Positions 18,635 to 44,515 of a stretch of 52,354 nucleotides of DNA are shown piece after piece. The stretch is taken from positions 1-52,354 of the IMG/VR virus record IMGVR_UViG_3300032322_001410. One strand, given 5' to 3'. This stretch comes from a virus. Lineage: Duplodnaviria; Caudoviricetes. Made by a program: the position numbers and the translations under genes. The notes beneath the pieces were generated by a model, which did no database searches, had not been told where the DNA came from, and saw only the letters and a program-made list of their open reading frames with translations. Each line of letters starts with the position of its first letter. Within the stretch, counting starts at the first letter, position 1.

Positions 18635-20530
18635 TTAAGCGGCTTCCGCTTCTTTTGTCTCTACATCGACTACACCATCATCTTTTGATTTTGTAGCCTC
18701 TTTTTCAGCCTGTTCGGCTTCGTATTTTTTACCAGTGATTGGTCCAAGAGCCTGATACAAATCAGTTACAGACTTGTTGATGGCTTCAATGTCCTCACCT
18801 TTCATAGCCTCTTCAACTGCTTTTAGTGCATCATCAGCTTTTTGTTTTTCTTCGGCAGTAACTTGATCACCATATTTTTCAACATCTTGTTTAAATCCAT
18901 TGTATGTTGATTCGGCGCCATTTCTAGCATTAATGAGTTCTACTAGTTTTTTATCTGCTTCAGCGTTCTCTTCGGCTTCTTTGACCATACGTTCAATTTC
19001 ATTTTCAGTCAAGCCACTATCAGATTTAATGGTAATTTTATTTTCTTTACCAGTATTCTTATCTGTTGCACTGATATGCATAATGCCATTAGCATCAATA
19101 TCAAAAGTAACTTCGATTTGAGGCATACCTCTAGGTGCAGGAGCAATACCATCTAAATTAAACTCACCTAGTTGTTTGTTATACTTATAAAGTTCACGCT
19201 CTCCTTGAGCAACCTTAATAGTAACAGCAGATTGATTATCTGCCGCTGTACTAAACGTTTGGCTTGCTTTAGTAGGAATAGTTGTGTTCTTGTTAATAAC
19301 TTTTGTGAATACGCCACCTAGTGTTTCAATACCCAAACTTAATGGTGTTACATCAAGTAGTAAAACATCTTTACGATCACCTGCAAGAACTGCACCTTGC
19401 ACAGCAGCACCAACTGCAACAGCCTCATCAGGATTTACATCTTTGCGAGGGGCTTTCCCAAAAAGTTTTTCAACTTCTTCTTGAACCTTCGGCATACGTG
19501 TCATACCACCAACAAGAATAACCTCGTCAATGTCACTTGCATTAACACCAGCATCACTTAATGCAATTTTGCAAGGATCAATGCTACGTTGAATTAATTC
19601 TTCCACTAATGCTTCTAATTTAGCACGTGATACTTTTACATTAAGGTGTTTTGGTCCTGTTGCGTCAGCAGTGATATATGGAAGATTTACATCAGTTTGT
19701 GCTGAGTTTGATAATTCAATTTTACATTTTTCAGCAGCATCCTTTAAACGCTGTAATGCAAGAACATCTTTGGTTAGATCAACACCTGTTTCTTTTTTAA
19801 ATTCATCGACCAAATAATCCATTATACGTTGATCAAAATCTTCACCACCTAGGAACGTATCACCATTAGTTGATAGAACTTCAATTTGTTTTTCTCCGTC
19901 GACGTTGGCGATTTCAATAATACTGATATCAAATGTACCACCACCTAGGTCATATACAGCAACCTTTCGGTCTTTCTTGTCCTGCTTATCTACCCCATAT
20001 GCTAGTGCAGCAGCAGTAGGTTCGTTAATAATACGTAGTACCTCTAAACCGGCAATTTTGCCTGCGTCTTTAGTTGCTTGTCTTTGACTATCATTAAAGT
20101 AAGCTGGTACTGTAATAACTGCTTGAGTAACTTCCGTACCCAAATAATCTTCGGCAGTCTTTTTCATTTTACGCAAAACTTCCGCACTAATCTGCGGTGG
20201 TGCATATTTCTTATCATCAACTTGTACCCATGCATCACCATTAGAATTTTCAATAATAGTATAAGGCATTAGGTCAATGTCTTTTTGCACTGCGTTTTCT
20301 TTAAACTTGCGACCAATAAGTCTCTTTGAAGCATAAATTGTATTTTTTGGATTCGTGACTGCTTGGCGCTTTGCACTAGCACCAACTAAGATTTCTTCTG
20401 GTGTATAGGCAACGATTGAAGGAGTAGTTCTTGCACCTTCGCTGTTTTCAATTACTTTGGGATTTCCGTTTTCAATAACGGCTACGCATGAATTTGTGGT
20501 ACCCAAATCGATACCGATGACTTTGCTCAT
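18635..20530 (-). CDS. dnaK: molecular chaperone DnaK
   Basis: [33 protein letters not shown] linker; full length 631 aa. Confidence 0.98.
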
Positions 20531-20640: not shown

Positions 20641-20862
20641 TTAAAATTCTTTTGGTGGTAATTGCTGTGCTTCTATGTATTTTTTCCAACGGTGAATCGC
20701 TTTACTTTTTTTGGTTTTGCGTTTGATAGTAGGTTTGACGAATTCCATGCGCTCCTTAACTTCTTGGAGAACACCCAAGTCTGTTACCTTCTTTTTGAGT
20801 TTTCTTAAAGCTTTTTCGATATTTCCATCTGTTACTAAAACTTTACGTCCTTTTATCGTCAT
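20641..20862 (-). CDS. rpsU: ribosomal protein bS21
   Basis: NIEKALRKLKKKV...GVLQEVKER.EF.KP..KR. Confidence 0.88.
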   Translation of the reverse strand: MTIKGRKVLVTDGNIEKALRKLKKKVTDLGVLQEVKERMEFVKPTIKRKTKKSKAIHRWKKYIEAQQLPPKEF

Positions 20863-22058
20863 AATAATTTTTTGGGTTCAATTACCTGCTCCTTATCTAT
20901 ATTTAGTAGTTTGATCTTATTTTTCTTATAGGTGCGGGCATGGAACATATGAATCATTAGGACTCGTTCTATTTCAGTATGGAGGCCTCTAGCCCCTGTT
21001 TTTAAATTTAGTGTGTTTTCTGCTATTTGCTCCAACGCTTCTTTTGTAAAGGTTAGTTCTATGTCATCTAGCTTGAAAAGATACTTATATTGACTAATGT
21101 AATTATTTTTTACATCTGTTAGGATTTGTATTAGTTGTTCTTTGGTTAATTCACTTATACTTACAGTAGTTGTGAATCTTCCGATAAATTCAGGAATCAT
21201 GCCAAACTTAGTCAAGTCATCCGGAGTTACTTTACTTAAATCTCCTTCTAGTTTAGTGTCTTTAATGTTTGCACTAAACCCAATACTGGTGCCAGTCAGT
21301 CTAGTACCAATTAAATCTTTTAGACCAACAAAGGCACCGCCGGCTATGAACAAAATATTTTTTGTATCAATTTCGTTAACGTCGCTACCGGGGTGCTTAC
21401 GCATACCAGATAAGGACACTCGACAAGTTGTACCTTCTACTAGCTTCAGTAAGGCTTGTTGTACTCCCTCACCACTAACATCTCTTGTGATGCTAGTGCT
21501 TTCACCTTTTCTGGCAATCTTGTCAATCTCATCAATAAAAATAATACCACGTTCTGCAAGATTTTTATCCCCGCCGGCTGCATTGACAAGCATGGTGATC
21601 ATACTTTCAACATCATCACCTACGTACCCTGCCTCAGTTAAACTTGTTGCATCCGCTACTACAAAAGGAACTTTTAAATATTTGGCAGCAGTTTTAGCAA
21701 GTAACGTTTTACCAGATCCAGTGGGACCTACAATTAGTACGTTACCTTTTTGTATATCTAAATCTTTTGGTGGATTAGTAATACGCTTGTAATGATTTGC
21801 AATTGCAACACTTAATACAGTTTTTGCGTCACTCTGACCAATCACATGTTGATCTAAATAATCCTTGATAGCTATAGGATCGTATTCAACCTGTTCTTTG
21901 GTAGAATCCTCATAATCTTCATCAATAATAAGTTCTTGACAAAGTTCAACACAGTCACTACAAATAGCGACTGCGCCTCCAACTACTAATTTCTTAACAT
22001 TGTCTTTGTGCGAACCACAAAAACTGCAATGATTAACCTGTTTAGTTTCTTCTGTCAT
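20859..22058 (-). CDS. clpX: Clp protease ATP-binding subunit ClpX
   Basis: CSFC..ICxxC zinc finger, GPTGSGKT, GYVG, DEIDK, RDVSGEGVQQ, RKH and IGF loops. Confidence 0.97.
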   Translation of the reverse strand: MTEETKQVNHCSFCGSHKDNVKKLVVGGAVAICSDCVELCQELIIDEDYEDSTKEQVEYDPIAIKDYLDQHVIGQSDAKTVLSVAIANHYKRITNPPKDLDIQKGNVLIVGPTGSGKTLLAKTAAKYLKVPFVVADATSLTEAGYVGDDVESMITMLVNAAGGDKNLAERGIIFIDEIDKIARKGESTSITRDVSGEGVQQALLKLVEGTTCRVSLSGMRKHPGSDVNEIDTKNILFIAGGAFVGLKDLIGTRLTGTSIGFSANIKDTKLEGDLSKVTPDDLTKFGMIPEFIGRFTTTVSISELTKEQLIQILTDVKNNYISQYKYLFKLDDIELTFTKEALEQIAENTLNLKTGARGLHTEIERVLMIHMFHARTYKKNKIKLLNIDKEQVIEPKKLL

Positions 22059-28533: not shown

Positions 28534-28661
28534 TATTTTGCTCCTTCTGTTGCTATTTCTTTAGTTTTTTGTACACCGTTGTCTAGAATCTTAGCAATAC
28601 CTGTAAAGCCTACTGTTGCTACTACGATGCCAAAAATTGTTCCAAATATAAAGTTTTTCAA
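28533..28661 (-). CDS. 42-aa membrane peptide (below ORF-track cutoff)
   Basis: GAGGT SD, TTG start, MKNFIFGTIFGIVVATVGFTGIAKILDNGVQKTKEIATEGAK; overlaps both neighbours. Confidence 0.65.
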   Translation of the reverse strand: MKNFIFGTIFGIVVATVGFTGIAKILDNGVQKTKEIATEGAK

Positions 28662-36410: not shown

Positions 36411-36625
36411 AGATATTTTAATTTTAAGTAAGTTTCAAATTTAGAATCTTCAGTTGTTAACATCCAGATACCTTGTGTTCTTTTTACTTCCCAACCTTCG
36501 CCACCAAATCTATTATGAAAATAATATCTTCTTGGTGATATGTTTTTTCGACACCACCAATCTATAATACTTAAGTCAGAATAAGGCACAGATATCATTG
36601 TACAATATTTTTTAATTATTGTCAA
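36407..36625 (-). CDS. hypothetical protein
   Basis: ORF overlapping both neighbours. Confidence 0.6.
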   Translation of the reverse strand: MTIIKKYCTMISVPYSDLSIIDWWCRKNISPRRYYFHNRFGGEGWEVKRTQGIWMLTTEDSKFETYLKLKYL

Positions 36626-37439
36626 TTTTTAGCAAATCCTCTAGAGAATATAGCTTATTCATGTATTTGCTAGGAGTATCCAAAACACTAGATTCCATAT
36701 CGCCCGGCCTTCTAGAACCATATTTTGTTTCAAATTTAACATTGTTTGTTTCTTTGAAAAGATTTACCATTTCTAATACAGTATGACCTTTACCATGACC
36801 CAAATGTTCGATAGAATTACTTGGCTTTTCTACTGCATACATTAAAGCAGTGCATATTTCGTTTACATGAACATAATCACGCACACAAGTGCCATCCTTT
36901 GTGTTGTAGTCATCACCAAAAATAGTAAAGTAACCAATATTGGGTGCTAACTTTAAATTGTAAAACAAACCATCAGGATTAGTGGGTTCAACAACATTAC
37001 CTCCTATGATATTAAAAAATCTGAAAATAGTATAATCAATGTTATTGCTCTTACAATGTGCTAGCACACAATCTTCTGCTGCACGTTTACTTAAACCATA
37101 TGGGCTAACCATACCCACTGCTGCACCAGTACTAGCAAAAATAAAGTTTTTTGTTTTAATTCCATTCAAAACATTTACAGTACCGTTAATGTTTGTTGTA
37201 TAATAATTACTAGGTTTATATACACTTTCACTTACATTTACTAACGCTGCAAGATGAATGACCGCATCAAATTCTATATCGATACCAATTGGCATTCTAA
37301 TATCTACATTCACAAAGTTTTTAGTTTCTATTTTTGGCTCTTGAAAATCCAAACAATACACTTCATGTTTATGTTTTTCTAACATAACCTGTAAGTGTGA
37401 GCCAATATATCCTGAACTACCTGTAATTAAAATTTTCAT
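36612..37439 (-). CDS. NAD-dependent NDP-sugar epimerase/dehydratase (GalE-like)
   Basis: GSSGYIG, HLAA, ASTG, YGLSK, DGTCVRDYVHV, RRPGD. Confidence 0.9.
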   Translation of the reverse strand: MKILITGSSGYIGSHLQVMLEKHKHEVYCLDFQEPKIETKNFVNVDIRMPIGIDIEFDAVIHLAALVNVSESVYKPSNYYTTNINGTVNVLNGIKTKNFIFASTGAAVGMVSPYGLSKRAAEDCVLAHCKSNNIDYTIFRFFNIIGGNVVEPTNPDGLFYNLKLAPNIGYFTIFGDDYNTKDGTCVRDYVHVNEICTALMYAVEKPSNSIEHLGHGKGHTVLEMVNLFKETNNVKFETKYGSRRPGDMESSVLDTPSKYMNKLYSLEDLLKIDNN

Positions 37440-38779
37440 TATAATCCTTCAAAAAGTACGAAAGGTTCTTCTTCCTCAATAGGAGTAAAAAGCGAATCTT
37501 TGCTTAAATATGTATTGGTATCCGTATATGTACAAGTATATTTGTGTTTATTTGCTAACACACTTTTTGTATCATCTATACAAATAACTTTTCTATTTAA
37601 ATTTGTTATATAGTCACTGTATTTTACTGTCTCACTTTGTAAAATTTTTGCCGTATTAGATTGGCTCTGTTTAGGTCTGAACCATTCAAAACATAAATTC
37701 CATTTATCAAAGACTTTTGATTCTTGTAAGTTGTTATAATGTAGAGAGCCTTTATTATACCATTCAGTCGCAGTAACAAACATATTGTATGCACCTAATA
37801 CATCTTGTGACATATCTTTTTTGTTTGTCTTAAAAAAGAACTGCCCTTCAAAATTATCTGTCCAGCGTTGGTTTTCTAAGCAGAAAGTCGGTAATTGAAT
37901 GAGTTGTTCATAAAAAGCCATACCATAACTTTCTACTGTGCTTGGATTAAATGCAACACGACAACTGGTGATGAAATCTACTTTCTCTTGTCCAATAATA
38001 CTAATTTTAATTTGATAGTCAACACCCAACTCTTTTAATCGTGCTTCAAATTTTTTAGCACCATTCGCATTGGTCATTACACGTGCCGGAAGTTTAGTTT
38101 CTTCAATGAGTTTTAAATATAGTTCTGGGTTCTTACCTTCTTCCCAACGACCAATAAACAACACACCTTCACGATCTTTATGATATTCATTTAGTAAAGC
38201 AGGTTCAGTAATGGGAATAGGCAAATGCCATGCATTCTCATCAAACTTATTACAATTAAACTCGCTTTGTGTGCCGATAGTGATGCCACCCATCTTTAAT
38301 TGCAGTCGCATCATTTCATTAACACTATTAAGAAATGGATTGTGTAATGTATTGGGGAATATTTGACTTTCTAAGTGAGTATATGCAATAACCTGTATTA
38401 CATCTTCAAGGCCCATCGTGCTTGCAACTTGTACAGTCTCATAGGTATTACAAATTAATGCATCATACAAATTATCTTCTAATGCCCTAATAATCGAATT
38501 ACGAAAGTTTGCCATTCGTTCATAGCAATAGCTATCGCCATACATAAAAATAGCACTGTGGTTTGTGTAAACATACGATTCTTCGGGATAGATAATATTG
38601 GTGTTTAGTGATTTTACAAATTCATTGTCTTGCGGTTTTTTGTCAGTAATAATATCAACTTTAACACCGTTTTCTTCCATTAGTCTAATAAAGCTTTTTG
38701 TGAACTGCCCGATACCACCATGTGGCACTAATGTTTGATAACTTACTAAAAATCCAATTCGTTTTTTATATATTTTCAT
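37439..38779 (-). CDS. GT-B glycosyltransferase (GT4-like)
   Basis: PHGGIG, FIGRWEEGKN, PSTVESYGMAFYE. Confidence 0.85.
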   Translation of the reverse strand: MKIYKKRIGFLVSYQTLVPHGGIGQFTKSFIRLMEENGVKVDIITDKKPQDNEFVKSLNTNIIYPEESYVYTNHSAIFMYGDSYCYERMANFRNSIIRALEDNLYDALICNTYETVQVASTMGLEDVIQVIAYTHLESQIFPNTLHNPFLNSVNEMMRLQLKMGGITIGTQSEFNCNKFDENAWHLPIPITEPALLNEYHKDREGVLFIGRWEEGKNPELYLKLIEETKLPARVMTNANGAKKFEARLKELGVDYQIKISIIGQEKVDFITSCRVAFNPSTVESYGMAFYEQLIQLPTFCLENQRWTDNFEGQFFFKTNKKDMSQDVLGAYNMFVTATEWYNKGSLHYNNLQESKVFDKWNLCFEWFRPKQSQSNTAKILQSETVKYSDYITNLNRKVICIDDTKSVLANKHKYTCTYTDTNTYLSKDSLFTPIEEEEPFVLFEGL

Positions 38780-39033
38780 TGCTTCATTAATTCAAAAATA
38801 TGTGATTCGGTTGTGCGCCAAATAATAAAAACAGGATCCATATAATCACCCACTCTCGAAATGCCCCGGTAAGCATATTTTAACCAAATGCGTTTATCCG
38901 TCAATTGACACTTATGTGGTAACCATGCAAAAGTCCATTCCCAATGTGCGTTATTAATTAGGTATTTGTCAAACTCTGCCATTTTAATACCTTTAGGAGG
39001 AAGATAACTCATGCCCCACATTATGTTCCCCAT
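38776..39033 (-). CDS. hypothetical protein
   Basis: W...FAWLP.KC......IWL..AY motif. Confidence 0.6.
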   Translation of the reverse strand: MGNIMWGMSYLPPKGIKMAEFDKYLINNAHWEWTFAWLPHKCQLTDKRIWLKYAYRGISRVGDYMDPVFIIWRTTESHIFELMKQ

Positions 39034-39869
39034 TCGTTTTTAAAAAGTGGTACTTGTAATCTATCACTATAACGCAAACCATGTTTCATTGCAAGTTCTG
39101 CGACAGTTCTGTTGTTTAATGCATACACATTTTCAACACCACCAACGGGCATTAAGTATACATGACCACCAAACCCTTCTTTCTTATATAGTTCAATCAC
39201 TTCCAATGCTTCATCAACATCTTCTTTTGTTGCAACTACAAATTTTAGATATGTATGACCCAAATCTTCATACTCTCTAACAATATCTGGGCGAATAGCT
39301 TCTTCTCTAAGTTCACCACTAACACTTAGTTTTGGGCTGACACTGAATGTTAGATTATGATAACCCTTTTTTTGTGTCCATTTATACAAAAATAACTTAA
39401 AGTCTGGTTGAAGTTTTTGTGTTCCATTAGTTTCAAATGTAATGTCATTACATTTTTTCATTCTAGGGTTATCTAACAATTCAGGATACGCTCGTTGCCA
39501 GCCTAATAATGGTTCGCCTCCAGTAATAACTAAATGCTCATTGCGCCATTCTTTAAATGGTAATGAACCGATGATGGCTTCAACTATTACATCAATATCA
39601 TACATTGCACTAAGGTCTTTGAATGCAGGATGCCAACTTGCATAACTATCGCATCCTGTAGTTACAAGCGGTAATTCATGATAGAATTTGAATTCACTAA
39701 CTCGTTTTGCTATGTCATCAGCTTCAGTGCTACAGTTACCTTTAGGCATACCGAAGCCACTACACGTGAAATTGCAACCATAAGTACGAAGGAAGATACT
39801 AGACACCCCCATGAATCTTCCCTCACCTTGTATACTATAAAATAATTCTGCTACTTTAATTTTACTCAT
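39021..39869 (-). CDS. queE: 7-carboxy-7-deazaguanine synthase (radical SAM)
   Basis: E.FYSIQGEG..G..SIFLR..GCN..C, CDS, ITGGEPL, ETNGT, VSPK, LMP, RLQ. Confidence 0.9.
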   Translation of the reverse strand: MSKIKVAELFYSIQGEGRFMGVSSIFLRTYGCNFTCSGFGMPKGNCSTEADDIAKRVSEFKFYHELPLVTTGCDSYASWHPAFKDLSAMYDIDVIVEAIIGSLPFKEWRNEHLVITGGEPLLGWQRAYPELLDNPRMKKCNDITFETNGTQKLQPDFKLFLYKWTQKKGYHNLTFSVSPKLSVSGELREEAIRPDIVREYEDLGHTYLKFVVATKEDVDEALEVIELYKKEGFGGHVYLMPVGGVENVYALNNRTVAELAMKHGLRYSDRLQVPLFKNEWGT

Positions 39870-40140
39870 AGATTTTTGACCAAATTTTAAGTTTGTCTTT
39901 TTTGTTTTGTTTGTACGTATCAAGTCTAGATTGTTCCAATATACCTTGCTCTAGTAAAATATCAACTAATGCTAATACATCTCCGATTTCCATTTCTAGC
40001 ATTGCTCTATGAGTATGTTGCATATCTGATTTATAATGTGCCGTTTCTAAACCAAATCTACGAATCTTACTCACTTCGACAATTATTTCTGCGCATTCTT
40101 CTTGCAGTATGCCCAATGCTTCTTCTGTTTTTGAATTCAT
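39862..40140 (-). CDS. MazG-like nucleotide pyrophosphohydrolase
   Basis: QEECAE...SK..RFG...LE.EIGDV. Confidence 0.8.
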   Translation of the reverse strand: MNSKTEEALGILQEECAEIIVEVSKIRRFGLETAHYKSDMQHTHRAMLEMEIGDVLALVDILLEQGILEQSRLDTYKQNKKDKLKIWSKIYE

Positions 40141-40347
40141 TTATTCACTCTCAAAATTAAAATGTTGAAGAATAATTTTGTCAAAACTACTCCAACAACC
40201 TGGTGCAGGATGACCTACAATTTTTGCACATTCATTTACAATTAATTTTGCAAATTCTATATTATATTGTTTAATCCAATTATCAACATCTAACCCTGCA
40301 GGAACTTTATTCTTTGCTTGATTTGAAAATTCTTGAATAAGATTCAT
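40141..40347 (-). CDS. hypothetical protein
   Basis: EFAKLIV.ECA motif; operon packing. Confidence 0.65.
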   Translation of the reverse strand: MNLIQEFSNQAKNKVPAGLDVDNWIKQYNIEFAKLIVNECAKIVGHPAPGCWSSFDKIILQHFNFESE

Positions 40348-40355
40348 ATAATGTT

Positions 40356-40601
40356 TTAATTTTCCAGTAAAGTTTTATTTTGAATATCCCAAAAAACTTC
40401 AATAGCTGTTTTGGCATGTTCTATTGAAATATATTGACCTAAATGTTTTTCGTCATTTAGAGTAAATGTATATTGTCCAGTATATACAATGCCAAAGAAT
40501 ACTTCTTGTAAGGCAATTTTACTAGCCATGCCTACAATTTTTCCTGTAACAGCATCATAATAATAGTATCTATCAGATACACTTTTCCAATCATATTTCA
40601 T
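40356..40601 (-). CDS. hypothetical protein
   Basis: ATGA overlap with the queD stop. Confidence 0.65.
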   Translation of the reverse strand: MKYDWKSVSDRYYYYDAVTGKIVGMASKIALQEVFFGIVYTGQYTFTLNDEKHLGQYISIEHAKTAIEVFWDIQNKTLLEN

Positions 40602-41113
40602 GTAAATAAGTCCTCATTCCATTCTCTGTGACCTTCTCTGAAAGCCATATTGCTTTGTGTTTCACGTACCTCTACACGATAGCACCAAAGTCTTTCTGCT
40701 TCGCCTGGCCCCCACATATCAGGAATATACACTCCATTGACATATTTGTAAAGCATATCGGCAAGACCCTCACAACCTAATCGTGGTAAAATGGTTAGTT
40801 TAGCCATTTTCTTTTCTTGCAATAATTTAAATGTTTCTAGTTCTGGGTCATCTTGTGCTACCAATAATGTATGATCAAATTGATCTTCTAGTATCTTCTT
40901 TAATTCTTTTAGACCACCATAATCAGCAGCCCAATTACGAACATCTAGATTATCAGTACCAAAATAAAACTTCATTGAAAACGAATATCCATGAATTAAG
41001 TTACAGTGACTATCGGCACGCCACTGACGATACGCACATGGAAAACTATCATGATATTCTTTGGTACTAGTATATTTGTAAACTCTAGGTGGGTAAATCT
41101 CTTTTAAGTACAT
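40598..41113 (-). CDS. queD: 6-carboxytetrahydropterin synthase (QueD/PTPS family)
   Basis: HCNLIHGY, W..DYG.LK, FDH, GCE..A, V.V.ET; AAGGAG SD before ATG 41113. Confidence 0.85.
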   Translation of the reverse strand: MYLKEIYPPRVYKYTSTKEYHDSFPCAYRQWRADSHCNLIHGYSFSMKFYFGTDNLDVRNWAADYGGLKELKKILEDQFDHTLLVAQDDPELETFKLLQEKKMAKLTILPRLGCEGLADMLYKYVNGVYIPDMWGPGEAERLWCYRVEVRETQSNMAFREGHREWNEDLFT

Positions 41114-41180
41114 TTTTGTCTCCTTTATTAGCAAGACATGCAGAATTTAATATAGCGGGATGAATGTCACAGGCCGCTTG
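41114..41180 (-). ncRNA. candidate preQ1-I-like riboswitch / cis-regulatory RNA in the queD leader
   Basis: P1 AGCGG/CCGCU, 15-nt loop ending CAUC, AU-rich tail, loop GACAU complementary to downstream AUGUC, SD-sequestering hairpin. Confidence 0.5.
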
Positions 41181-41376
41181 TGCTTACTCTTTTGTTCCAA
41201 TTATTTATTGCATCGTCACCTGAAGAACCTAAAATAGATGCACTGCATCCCCCAGTTTCTTCAGCACAGTTTACTGACCATATAGTTTTTTGTTTATCGA
41301 TTGGATAAACTGTTTCATGCCATAAATCTTGTTGATTTAAATCATGTCCACAAAAAGGACAAGGTTTTAATTTCAT
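41167..41376 (-). CDS. Lar-like (restriction alleviation family) zinc ribbon protein
   Basis: LKPCPFCG...V.C.....C......AI..WN.R. Confidence 0.75.
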   Translation of the reverse strand: MKLKPCPFCGHDLNQQDLWHETVYPIDKQKTIWSVNCAEETGGCSASILGSSGDDAINNWNKRVSTSGL

Positions 41377-41846
41377 TGATTCAATACATTAATTATTTGG
41401 GCATCAGCTACACGTTTGCGTAAACTGCTAGAACTAAAGCTGTGGTCACGACCATTAAATATTATAGCAATGTTGCGACTCCAACAAGCTTCGTCACCAG
41501 TGAATCTTTTATCTTCATACTCAACACCTAGTATACGCACATCTAATGGCAAAATCAATAGTAAATCAATCAAATCTTGTTCAGTTTGATATACAACAAC
41601 TTCATCAACATATCGACATGCCGCTAGTTGTATTTGCCTTTCTACAATACTTTGAACAGGTTTATTTTTGGTATCTGGTCTATCAATTGTTGGGTCAGTT
41701 TGTAATCCCGCAATTAAATAATCACAATGATTTTTAGCTTCAGCAAGCATAGCAACATGTCCCGCATGAAATAAATCAAAGGTACTAAACGTGATACCTA
41801 TTTTTAATCCTTTAGCCTTTAGGTCTTTAACTTTATTGAATATCAT
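41373..41846 (-). CDS. cytidylyltransferase (TagD-like HxGH nucleotidyltransferase)
   Basis: TFDLFHAGH, YVDEV, G.EY, R...FSSS.LR. Confidence 0.88.
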   Translation of the reverse strand: MIFNKVKDLKAKGLKIGITFSTFDLFHAGHVAMLAEAKNHCDYLIAGLQTDPTIDRPDTKNKPVQSIVERQIQLAACRYVDEVVVYQTEQDLIDLLLILPLDVRILGVEYEDKRFTGDEACWSRNIAIIFNGRDHSFSSSSLRKRVADAQIINVLNQ

Positions 41847-41991
41847 TTTTATCTTTTTTATCTTTTTTAAGTGGGCAATCACATTCATATCTACCTTGAT
41901 TGCAATTACCAGTACATCCAGGTATATTCATTGTAACGTATATTCCTAAGTATACAATAACTAAGCCAAGAATTATTAATACTATAGTCAT
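41833..41991 (-). CDS. 52-aa membrane-anchored Cys-rich peptide (below cutoff)
   Basis: ATG overlaps folE stop; MTIVLIILGLVIVYLGIYVTMNIPGCTGNCNQGRYECDCP... Confidence 0.6.
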   Translation of the reverse strand: MTIVLIILGLVIVYLGIYVTMNIPGCTGNCNQGRYECDCPLKKDKKDKNDIQ

Positions 41992-42665
41992 TTCCCCATC
42001 CTTGCAATACTTAGAAATTCATTTCTTGCTGCTGGGTCTGTTTTAAATCCACCACCTAGTCGAACTGTCACAGTAGAACTACCTGTATCCTCTACACCAC
42101 GACTCTTAACACAATAATGTTGTGCGTCAATCATAACCGCAACATCTTCTGTTTCGAGAATGTAACATAGTGTGTGAAAAATTTGTTCAGTTAATCGTTC
42201 TTGTATCTGTGGGCGTTTGCTGAAATATTCAACAATACGATTAATCTTACTAAGACCTAATACCTTTTGCTTAGGTACATATGCAACTGTGGCAAGTCCG
42301 TCAATGATAACAAAGTGATGTTCGCAATTACTTTGTACACTTACATTGCGGTCGCACACCATTTCATTGTAATGCATTTTGTTATCAACTGTTGTACATT
42401 TAGGGAATGCCTCATAATCAAGTCCCCAAAAGATTTCATTGACATACATTTTTGCTACACGTTTTGGTGTTTCTGCTAGACTATCATCATCTAAATCAAG
42501 TCCTAGAACTTGCATGATATATTTGAAATGTTTTTCAATCTCATTGATCTTGTCTTTTCTATCCATGTTAATATTGGTAGTAGGAGTTTCAACTCCCATT
42601 TTGACAAGATATTCATGAACCTTTTTACCTAGTTCAGGGTCTGTTTTTGTTTTATTGTAACTCAT
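41988..42665 (-). CDS. folE: GTP cyclohydrolase I
   Basis: TPKRVAK, CEHH, GLSKINR, RPQIQERLT, H.C...RGV. Confidence 0.96.
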   Translation of the reverse strand: MSYNKTKTDPELGKKVHEYLVKMGVETPTTNINMDRKDKINEIEKHFKYIMQVLGLDLDDDSLAETPKRVAKMYVNEIFWGLDYEAFPKCTTVDNKMHYNEMVCDRNVSVQSNCEHHFVIIDGLATVAYVPKQKVLGLSKINRIVEYFSKRPQIQERLTEQIFHTLCYILETEDVAVMIDAQHYCVKSRGVEDTGSSTVTVRLGGGFKTDPAARNEFLSIARMGK

Positions 42666-42667
42666 CT

Positions 42668-42732
42668 TGATAACCCTCCGTTGTGATGGTTTGTTTTTGA
42701 AGTTTGCAACCGTTGTGTTGCATAATTATTTA
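42668..42732 (-). promoter_or_regulatory. TAAATA plus tandem CACAACGG hairpins in the folE leader
   Basis: UGCAAC-ACAACG-GUUGCA hairpin, then AACC-AUCACAACGGAG-GGUU overlapping the SD. Confidence 0.55.
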
Positions 42733-42932
42733 TCTTTAGTTGTAGTCTCTGCATTTTTCTTACTGGGGAGTGGCTGGTAATCAACAAACATTCCGGTCCA
42801 CTTCCAATTAACGGGCTTCCAATATTTTGCAAACATGTTGTTAATAAAAATTACAACGATGGTCACTACGCAGAAACCCAATCCAATAAGTATTGTTTCT
42901 ACTAAAAAACTTGCTGCACTATTAATTTCCAT
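42726..42932 (-). CDS. small membrane protein
   Basis: TM segment followed by INN.F.KYWKP. Confidence 0.65.
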   Translation of the reverse strand: MEINSAASFLVETILIGLGFCVVTIVVIFINNMFAKYWKPVNWKWTGMFVDYQPLPSKKNAETTTKDK

Positions 42933-42933
42933 T

Positions 42934-44133
42934 TTAGTATTTGCCTTCTTTTGTGTGTTTTCTATAATCCGTACTCATACGTAAATACTGTTCACCTTGC
43001 CCAGTAATCACATCACAAATACGATCAATTGTTTTATCATTATAATCACTTATTTTACCCATATTGATATGTGGGTGCTTTAGTAATTTAAACAACTTAT
43101 TTAATGCATCATGAATTGACCAAGGAATGTAAAGCCTATCGCTGTCATTAGCAAAAGTTTCAGGAAAGCTGCGATAAGCAGGATAAAGCACATTGCAGCC
43201 CAAAGTGTCTGCCTCTGATACAGTATTACTGACCCAGTCTTGTAAAGCACAGTTAAACAATACCCTAGTATCATTAAGTAAATTATAGTAATCATTTTTT
43301 TCTAAATCTTCATATACAACTAATTTGCCTTCGTCTACTAGACGCTTTGTTCTTTCCATATAACTACTATTGTTTGATTTTAATTTGCTACCACTGAATA
43401 GAGCAAATTCAATTTCATCTTGTTCGTAGCCTTCCCAATATGCCATCTTACTAAGACGATGAAATTCTTCAATCAAGTCCATATAGAAGTCAGGTTGTTT
43501 TTCTTGATCCCAACGTGCTGCGAAACCTACACGTAGTTTACGTTGATGAAAAGGTTTTAATTCTTTTACTCTACTACGAACCTCATCTTTACCAAATGCT
43601 AAACCAGAAATATTATAGATAGGAGCAGTCCATCCAGCAATACGCATATGAGCAACCATTTCCTCGTTTGAGGCGAGAACTCCGGTAACAAACTCATTGA
43701 CCATGCTTTCGTAATATCCCATCCACTTCGCCATGCCCCATACATGAACAAAGTCATCAGGATCAATGGACTGAGCAAGACACCTAACAAAAACACGGGG
43801 ACGCTTATCAGCAGGGACTTGGTTAAATATGTAAGGTAAGCTTTCGATACCGGGTTGAAACATGTCCTCAAAGTAGATAACATCCTCATTACTAATTTCT
43901 CCGTTTTTATGACAACGTACAAGATTCATCATTTGGCTCATACCAAAGTAACTACGACCATGTGCATCTAGTACTTGTCCTGTAACTATATCTTGGCTAG
44001 TCGTAAGTGTTTCACCATGCATTAAACAATAAGTAAAATTTCTTTTATCGAATACACGTTCATTCCATTCTGTTAATTGTAATGTATACCGTGCCTTGTA
44101 TGGTTCAAGGCCCATATAATACAGTTTACGCAT
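42934..44133 (-). CDS. GT-B glycosyltransferase
   Basis: FAARWDQEKQP, LFNCALQDWVSNTVSEA..LGC....P....FPE. Confidence 0.8.
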   Translation of the reverse strand: MRKLYYMGLEPYKARYTLQLTEWNERVFDKRNFTYCLMHGETLTTSQDIVTGQVLDAHGRSYFGMSQMMNLVRCHKNGEISNEDVIYFEDMFQPGIESLPYIFNQVPADKRPRVFVRCLAQSIDPDDFVHVWGMAKWMGYYESMVNEFVTGVLASNEEMVAHMRIAGWTAPIYNISGLAFGKDEVRSRVKELKPFHQRKLRVGFAARWDQEKQPDFYMDLIEEFHRLSKMAYWEGYEQDEIEFALFSGSKLKSNNSSYMERTKRLVDEGKLVVYEDLEKNDYYNLLNDTRVLFNCALQDWVSNTVSEADTLGCNVLYPAYRSFPETFANDSDRLYIPWSIHDALNKLFKLLKHPHINMGKISDYNDKTIDRICDVITGQGEQYLRMSTDYRKHTKEGKY

Positions 44134-44515
44134 CCTCTTCCCTTTTTGTAATTTCCAAATCACAATCAATGATCATTTCACAATCACTAAAAAGCCAACC
44201 ATGTTCTTCAAGGTCTAACCAACTATTACCTTCCTCAAAGAATTCTTCTAGCCAAGCTTGAGCTTCCTCGTCTACTTCATCATACTCACGTTCTTCCCAA
44301 CAACCATCGTCGGTTTCCACTAATTCAGTTTCATAACCGCAGTTATAAATATCTACACCTGCTTCAATATCAGGAGGATTATCGTCCTCAGTGTATACAA
44401 TAAATTCTCCCCAACGCCAACCAGTTTCAACAATAAGAGTATTATCGTCTTTTGTAATATGTTGACGTTCGATAATAGATTTTTTCCAAGTGGGTTTAAC
44501 TGTCCAAGTCGCCAT
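44126..44515 (-). CDS. acidic hypothetical protein
   Basis: ETGWRWG motif; operon packing. Confidence 0.75.
   Translation of the reverse strand: MATWTVKPTWKKSIIERQHITKDDNTLIVETGWRWGEFIVYTEDDNPPDIEAGVDIYNCGYETELVETDDGCWEEREYDEVDEEAQAWLEEFFEEGNSWLDLEEHGWLFSDCEMIIDCDLEITKREEDA

Follow-up and report, generated by a model that had tools for sequence, protein, structure and literature searches.

In the add adenine riboswitch, a translational ON switch, a strand of the aptamer doubles as the anti-Shine–Dalgarno (anti-SD) sequence. H-type pseudoknots act as protein operators in T-even phages, and the leader of T4 gene 32 contains an H-type pseudoknot that serves as a protein nucleation site and is not known to have a competing helix over the SD. 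The class I preQ1 riboswitches (preQ1-I, RF00522) are also H-type knots, in which UC or AC precedes the 3′ strand of the first helix (P1) and the C pairs with the ligand (PMC11625349). This C is the specificity base, found as UC in type I and as AC in types II and III, whereas in types I and III the P1 5′ strand is topped by UU; loop L3 is A-rich and the second helix (P2) is short, with four steps in the Tte aptamer (PMC11625349). The available part of this source describes preQ1 riboswitches solely with ligand-bound gene-off states, and presents preQ1-II and preQ1-III, which are likewise pseudoknots controlling translation of queuosine-related genes, as folds of greater size, with an embedded hairpin or an HLout knot, in which ligand binding buries the SD (PMC11625349).

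Here, we report a cis-acting element with an H-type pseudoknot fold, probably an aptamer, located in the 5′ leader of a phage PTPS/QueD-family gene. It lies in a stretch of 52,354 nucleotides that was analysed as a whole (the window), corresponding to positions 1-52,354 of IMG/VR record IMGVR_UViG_3300032322_001410 (Duplodnaviria; Caudoviricetes). The window is a fragment of a jumbo phage genome, with a completeness of ~15% (CheckV), and also encodes a family-B DNA polymerase, an ATP-dependent ligase and UvdE, as well as a full-length DnaK/Hsp70 (E 4e-260; 18635-20530, minus strand) and a ClpX-like ATPase with a zinc finger (20859-22058, minus strand). All the genes flanking the queD-like leader are on the minus strand:

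42665-41988, minus strand: FolE (NF006824, 325 bits)
listed between FolE and the Lar-like ORF, minus strand: cytidylyl/adenylyl-transferase-like gene
41376-41167, minus strand: Lar-like ORF of 69 aa, whose stop codon TGA (41169-41167) is within the pseudoknot loop
40598-41113, minus strand: PTPS/QueD-family gene of 171 aa, the regulated gene (start codon AUG at 41113-41111; PF01242, E 8.5e-16)
listed between the queD-like and QueE-like genes, minus strand: three small ORFs
39923-39021, minus strand: QueE-like radical-SAM gene, whose top five NCBIfam matches are all QueE models, all far under their cut-offs
listed after the QueE-like gene, minus strand: sugar-nucleotide and glycosyltransferase genes

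The FolE, QueD and QueE genes thus sit amid sugar-nucleotide genes (window 36612-44169, minus strand), which include a GalE-like epimerase, an RfaE-domain-II-like nucleotidyltransferase and glycosyltransferase-like ORFs. Inspection of the ORFs of a related locus, L089, revealed a similar neighbourhood, with glycosyltransferase-like, epimerase/dehydratase-like and aminotransferase-like ORFs. These surroundings hint at a glycosylated product.

The leader element spans 41178-41111 (minus strand), immediately 5′ of the queD-like start codon, and has the following parts:

41174-41178, minus strand: P1 5′ strand (AGCGG), pairing with 41154-41158
41169-41173, minus strand: loop L1 (CCUGU), overlapping the Lar-like stop codon in the window
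41161-41168, minus strand: P2 5′ strand, formed by GACAU (P2a, 41168-41164), a mismatched U and CA (P2b)
41159-41160, minus strand: loop L2 (UC), whose C (41159) is invariant and immediately precedes the P1 3′ strand
41154-41158, minus strand: P1 3′ strand (CCGCU), the complement of AGCGG
41143-41153, minus strand: loop L3 (AUAUUAAAUUC), A-rich, 11 nt in the window and 10 nt in most relatives
41135-41142, minus strand: P2 3′ strand, formed by UG (P2b), a mismatched C and AUGUC (P2a, 41139-41135)
41117-41138, minus strand: SD-sequestering hairpin, UGUCUU (41138-41133) with GAGACA (41122-41117), present in both the MFE and the centroid structures
41120-41124, minus strand: Shine–Dalgarno sequence AGGAG, 6 nt 5′ of the AUG

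The sequestering hairpin and P2 have four nucleotides in common (UGUC, 41135-41138). The three pairings proposed in an earlier, sequence-only reading of this DNA (P1, GACAU with AUGUC, and UGUCUU with the SD) are all found at these positions, and the P1 and P2 helices covary, as described below. That reading had also assigned to the element the layout of a class I preQ1 riboswitch, which holds down to the C just 5′ of the P1 3′ strand. Its description of the loop and tail was right in part: the loop end CAUC is present but belongs partly to a helix, as its CA pairs with UG, and the AU-rich tail is indeed an A-rich segment, but one that forms the 10-11-nt loop L3 and not a free tail.

IMG/VR was searched with the QueD protein alone, which gave at least 589 confirmed relatives, and the best 80 loci were kept. 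Their QueD proteins are 88-97% identical, and their upstream regions share the motif despite differing preceding genes and promoters. A sequence pattern derived from the motif yielded at least 120 further stretches. From 193 regex-defined instances we obtained 139 unique cores, two of which were false and were removed, and the remaining 137 were aligned (alignment A1, MAFFT). Perfect P1 pairing was required when choosing sequences, which is why P1 is 100% paired in this set. Compensatory changes are found in three of the five P1 pairs (11 cells), a result equalled in 0/500 shuffles, although here, as in the P2 test below, the P1-based selection and the relatedness of the sequences make the shuffle tests overstate independence. 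The changes are of the types C:G to U:A or A:U, G:C to C:G, and A:U to U:A, and the P1 variants of the relatives (AGUGG/CCACU, AGAGG/CCUCU, ACCGG/CCGGU and UGCGG/CCGCA) come mainly from the QueD-anchored set.

Because some P2 bases are misplaced in A1, this helix was tested on a gap-free subset of 90 unique segments (A2), in which L2 has 2 nt and L3 has 10 nt, so that the 11-nt-L3 type of the window is left out. In A2, 73.7% of the P2 cells are paired, versus 58.3% after shuffling (0/500 shuffles equal, with the same overstatement), and the covariation score is 0.413, compared with 0.182 for shuffled alignments and 0.076-0.116 for registers displaced by one to three columns. Each of the five P2a pairs occurs as 3-6 standard pair types. 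The CA of the loop pairs with the UG of an invariant UCUGC, its A position being A:U in 83 and G:C in 7 of the 90 sequences and never unpaired; since this pairing covaries, P2 has eight positions with one conserved U.C mismatch. The check for covariation among queD leaders that the sequence-only reading had pointed to is therefore positive for both P1 and GACAU/AUGUC. The element is almost certainly a conserved functional RNA structure. As a single sequence it is no more stable than expected by chance (nested MFE -15.6 kcal/mol, z = -0.47).

The unpaired positions are also strongly conserved. L1 starts with a conserved YCU (Y/A, C, U), the C and U being present in 134/137 sequences (A1 columns 9-10), followed in relatives by 0-8 variable bases. 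The C just before the P1 3′ strand (column 27) is found in 137/137 sequences, and the base preceding it (column 26) is U in 114, C in 17 and A in 6. In L3, three A's and the terminal UC are invariant, and the C that separates P2b from P2a in the P2 3′ strand is invariant or near-invariant. L3 is probably placed in the groove of P1. Position 4 of L3 is an A in 7/7 sequences whose third P1 pair is U:A or A:U, versus 3/130 of those with C:G (Fisher p ~8e-10, without correction for relatedness), a sequence association that suggests an L3-to-P1 base triple.

A covariance model encoding P1 only (R1), with the window's own sequence among its 137, gives 53.5 bits (E 1.4e-15) at the leader of the window, the runner-up in the 52 kb scoring 8.4 bits. 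A full R1 match is present 5′ of queD in 79/80 QueD-anchored loci, and in the 80th (L030) the contig end cuts the motif, leaving only its 3′ part. Among the pattern-anchored loci, 94 of the 100 searched have a full match, and the rest correspond to five chance pattern matches and one weak partial match. Five related records, three of which are 98-100% complete (353-364 kb), contain exactly one R1 match each, located in all five 75-90 nt 5′ of the sole PTPS match. Phages with this motif number in the hundreds, and the DNA datasets containing the locus are lake-water and freshwater metagenomes. In a collection of isolated phages (50,697 records), megablast with the locus gave no match, and blastn with a typical leader gave only chance-level matches (E 0.3-0.9). 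R1 has no match either in the queD regions of phages ACP17, vB_DshS-R5C and X1, whose QueD proteins are 50-54% identical; in these phages queD starts less than ~30 nt from the preceding annotated gene, or overlaps it, leaving no leader.

The link of the motif to one enzyme family is tight. Of 157 unique proteins encoded by the first ORF after the motif, 151 fall into three PTPS clusters (126, 14 and 11 members), which share 37-41% identity with one another; every cluster matches PF01242. All the motif-linked PTPS/QueD proteins (window 40598-41113, minus strand, and the three clusters) have C-x3-HGY where the usual QueD/PTPS motif is C-x3-HGH, and a Y or F at the presumed first zinc histidine. 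The other six first ORFs are a 282-aa ORF (two copies), a methyltransferase, a cupin, an 85-aa ORF and a 243-aa ORF whose start is doubtful. In L014 at least and, as judged from a PTPS domain, in L120, queD is located further downstream or is fused. In L014 it is a 276-aa methyltransferase that stands between the motif and queD. The 282-aa ORF, which has no Pfam match, is found where queD would be expected in L183 (4955-5800) and L193, and is possibly an inserted mobile gene.

With regard to the pathway, the QueD-like protein of the window scores 35 bits against the QueD model TIGR03367, far under its cut-off (89 bits), and with scores so far below this equivalog cut-off the reaction catalysed may differ. 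FolE is present in 5/5 related records, and the QueE-like protein is strong in 4/5, the fifth having a weak N-terminal match adjoining queD. A Pfam TGT domain was found in 0/5 of these records, and QueC is above cut-off in only 1/5, where the match is partial (profile positions 4-68), which fits the earlier suggestion of a pathway that stops short of preQ1. Cellulophaga phage phiST has FolE, QueD and QueE without QueC, and its DNA has G replaced by 7-deazaguanine; the same source also reports that DpdA homologues are undetected in some phages with modified DNA (PMC10516641). As DpdA homologues can escape detection, the TGT result counts as weak evidence. A set of phages without TGT, and mostly without QueC, argues for a ligand other than preQ1, to which we give roughly even chances.

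The comparison with preQ1-I bears on whether the leader could be a divergent member of that family, binding preQ1 or preQ0 and repressing queD translation. Much of the architecture would fit such a relationship: both are minimal H-type pseudoknots in which G-C pairs close a 5-bp P1 and the loop pairs with the tail as P2. Both have an A-rich L3, which in the leader probably runs along P1, and a C that adjoins the P1 3′ strand on its 5′ side, in the leader mostly after U as in type I, and both are placed 5′ of a queuosine-type biosynthesis gene. The differences, however, are numerous. P2 of the leader has 7-8 positions with a conserved U.C mismatch, about twice as long as the short class I helix; L3 is longer (10-11 nt) and ends in an invariant UC; and YCU replaces the UU of preQ1-I after the P1 5′ strand. 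The SD of the leader is outside the knot, with P2 located 13-45 nt 5′ of it and containing no SD nucleotides. In addition, the P2 3′ strand shows complementarity with the SD or the AUG and would act as an anti-SD, so that ligand-stabilised folding should activate, the opposite of the OFF design. The leader motif was found only in uncultivated lake-water phages when IMG/VR and isolated phages were searched, and the lack of TGT and, mostly, of QueC in these phages does not favour preQ1 as ligand. Considering these points, we find repression by a divergent preQ1-I member to be quite improbable.

The covariance models lead to the same view of family membership. Checking the resemblance noted in the sequence-only reading with the Rfam PreQ1 model RF00522 (gathering threshold 39 bits) gave no match at the leader with E<=10 in any of six records (G000, G001, G002, G003, G005 and G006), and over the whole records there were only weak matches, none at the leader. 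The best RF00522 match in the window (28555-28587, minus strand; 15.5 bits, E 0.04) is located at the end of a coding frame and was taken as chance. The 4227 covariance models of Rfam 15 gave no match in the whole window at gathering threshold, and those of preQ1-II and preQ1-III did not match in it; within 40900-41500 (601 bases), a search at E<=10 gave only chance-level eukaryotic or sRNA matches (E 1.6-8.7) and no preQ1 family. The leader motif is not a member of the preQ1-I family as curated; it resembles a preQ1-I-type aptamer in its working and may descend from one. A search of mostly non-subscription literature found no queD-leader riboswitch, phage 7-deazaguanine riboswitch or fourth preQ1 class, which makes this a candidate riboswitch class absent from Rfam 15 and from the literature searched.

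Downstream of the knot, the 159 unique leaders have four platform designs, accounting for 108, 34, 6 and 4 leaders, plus seven others. The first pairs CCUAUG with CAUAGGAG (108 leaders); the second, GUCRUC...GAUGGC, covers the AUG (34 leaders); the third, UGUCUUG...GAGACA, is that of the window (6 leaders); and the fourth is GCCAUUG...CAAUGGC (4 leaders). Whatever the design, the final 2-5 bases of the P2 3′ strand double as the beginning of a helix that covers the SD or the start codon. With 5-6 bp these sequestor hairpins are short, and their helices can form in 15/17 distinct SD-type and 9/9 distinct AUG-type arm pairs. The competition between P2 and the SD that had been proposed from the window alone is thus repeated, between the P2 3′ strand and the ribosome-binding site, in four unrelated platforms.

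The effect of the knot was mimicked in partition-function folds by barring both P2 strands from pairing elsewhere. The mean predicted probability of the SD being unpaired then goes from 0.28 to 0.57 over the 159 leaders, a gain that is partly by construction because neighbouring bases are forbidden to pair; it increases by more than 0.05 in 132 leaders and decreases in 4, and with only the P2 5′ strand blocked it is 0.275. In the two AUG-type designs, blocking the P2 strands is predicted to open the start codon from 0.06 to 0.30 and from 0.0 to 0.44. This modelled competition between P2 and the sequestor fits a switch that turns translation ON, in which the P2 3′ strand would be the anti-SD.

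The mechanism that we propose is as follows. When the ligand is absent, the P2 3′ strand would pair with the SD, or with the start codon in some relatives, blocking initiation. A small molecule with a guanine-like face would stabilise P2 and so occupy the anti-SD strand, exposing the ribosome-binding site and allowing QueD synthesis. The binding pocket would lie between P1 and P2, lined by the invariant C and by the conserved YCU and UC...UGC bases. By analogy with preQ1-I, this C suggests a ligand with a guanine-like Watson–Crick face, a property shared by 7-deazaguanines, guanine and pterins. The candidates are guanine itself, a 7-deazaguanine and a pterin, for which the QueD substrate is an example. 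As in the add adenine riboswitch, ligand-stabilised folding of the aptamer would free the ribosome-binding site, but add has a three-way junction, another ligand and a cellular host. The element also has one general mark of riboswitches, namely a conserved, structured putative aptamer combined with variable platforms and genes of one pathway across lineages. The conserved fold, its covariation, its exclusive link to PTPS/QueD-family genes and the competing pairings are seen in the sequences themselves, whereas we infer that a ligand binds, which one it is and that the direction is ON. On balance we favour a ligand-sensing translational ON switch, and a candidate new riboswitch class, as the probable reading. 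A point against it is that ON control of a biosynthetic gene independent of its product would be unusual.

A different reading of the same fold is that it is constitutive and senses nothing, serving for example to enhance translation, to stabilise the mRNA or to insulate folding. In favour of such a role, the element is at the transcript 5′ end and its pseudoknot could form ligand-free. However, the competition of P2 with the SD or AUG sequestor is conserved in four designs, which implies two alternative states, and a constitutive structure would leave the strict link to one enzyme family unexplained. We therefore regard a purely structural role as improbable.

The sequences 5′ of the motif indicate where its RNA begins. 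The box ATAA[AG]TA is found in 92/161 unique 45-nt upstream segments, mostly 5-12 nt 5′ of P1 (for example in L099 and L095), compared with a background rate of 0.55% of windows; we take it to resemble the T4 late promoter. A further 13 upstream segments have a sigma-70-like -35/-10 pair (TTGAC-N-TAnAWT). With promoter-like boxes just 5′ of P1, the RNA would start at about P1 in most relatives, whereas in the window the Lar-like ORF runs into L1, and the leader may be read through from upstream. A second type of box, TGnTAnnnT, is found in the loop of the SD-sequestering hairpin in 98/108 CCUAUG-type leaders (e.g. L086:1275-1300), and in 45 of these 98 loops it is the perfect extended -10 box TGCTATAAT, 15-21 nt 5′ of the start codon. 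This loop could be a second, riboswitch-independent promoter, or merely AU-rich.

These features bring up the possibility that conservation acts on the DNA, as a promoter, operator or recombination site, or reflects coding overlap with the Lar-like ORF. The 5′ 12 nt of the motif do overlap this ORF in the window, and the TGnTAnnnT box is present in many platform hairpins. Neither explanation accounts for compensatory changes in two helices or for strand-specific G:U pairs, and the motif is unchanged while the upstream genes differ among relatives. Because both upstream genes and promoters differ between relatives, which carry the motif behind other genes, the end of the Lar-like gene, named in the sequence-only reading as a possible cause of conservation, does not explain it. 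Given the covariation and the variety of upstream contexts, DNA-level or coding conservation is effectively refuted, and we consider it highly improbable.

A more serious alternative to a ligand-sensing switch is a translational operator bound by a phage protein, which might be a global repressor or even QueD, with no small molecule involved. The T-even precedent, and in particular the T4 gene 32 leader, which by description is likewise an H-type pseudoknot at a phage mRNA 5′ end controlling translation, gives weight to this idea, as do the T4-late-like promoter boxes of these phages and the fact that the ligand is only a candidate here. Against it, the unpaired bases are near-invariant across three PTPS clusters that are only 37-41% identical, and they cluster at the helix junction, like small-molecule pockets. 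The motif occurs in one copy per genome and in front of this gene only, which argues against a global repressor, and interchangeable expression platforms are typical of riboswitches. A protein operator is in our view unlikely.

Returning to the ligand-sensing switch, its most specific form is one that we put forward tentatively, as possible rather than probable. It would be a new class with a preQ1-I-like fold, the first natural activator of that architecture, and its ligand would be an intermediate with a guanine face from the phage's own FolE-QueD-QueE route, such as dihydroneopterin triphosphate, CDG or 7-deazaguanine. With it, jumbo phages of lake bacteria would time or meter how GTP-derived pterin is diverted into a 7-deazaguanine product short of preQ0. 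If confirmed, the known riboswitches would gain a class that is common but restricted to uncultivated phages, in which the preQ1-I type knot, the smallest riboswitch fold, has been converted from an OFF into an ON design, with the SD relocated outside the knot and a P2 strand serving as anti-SD. It would also mark the PTPS/QueD step as a controlled branch point of the pathway, offer an experimental handle on phage regulation of 7-deazaguanine or pterin metabolism, and provide a compact natural ON switch of ~45 nt, usable as a tool.

One locus, L089, carries a second, degenerate copy of the motif (L089:6-53; 36.4 bits), with ACCAG/CUGGU as P1 and with the P2 complementarity lost. This copy precedes a 309-aa methyltransferase-like gene (L089:68-994), directly 5′ of the intact copy and queD.
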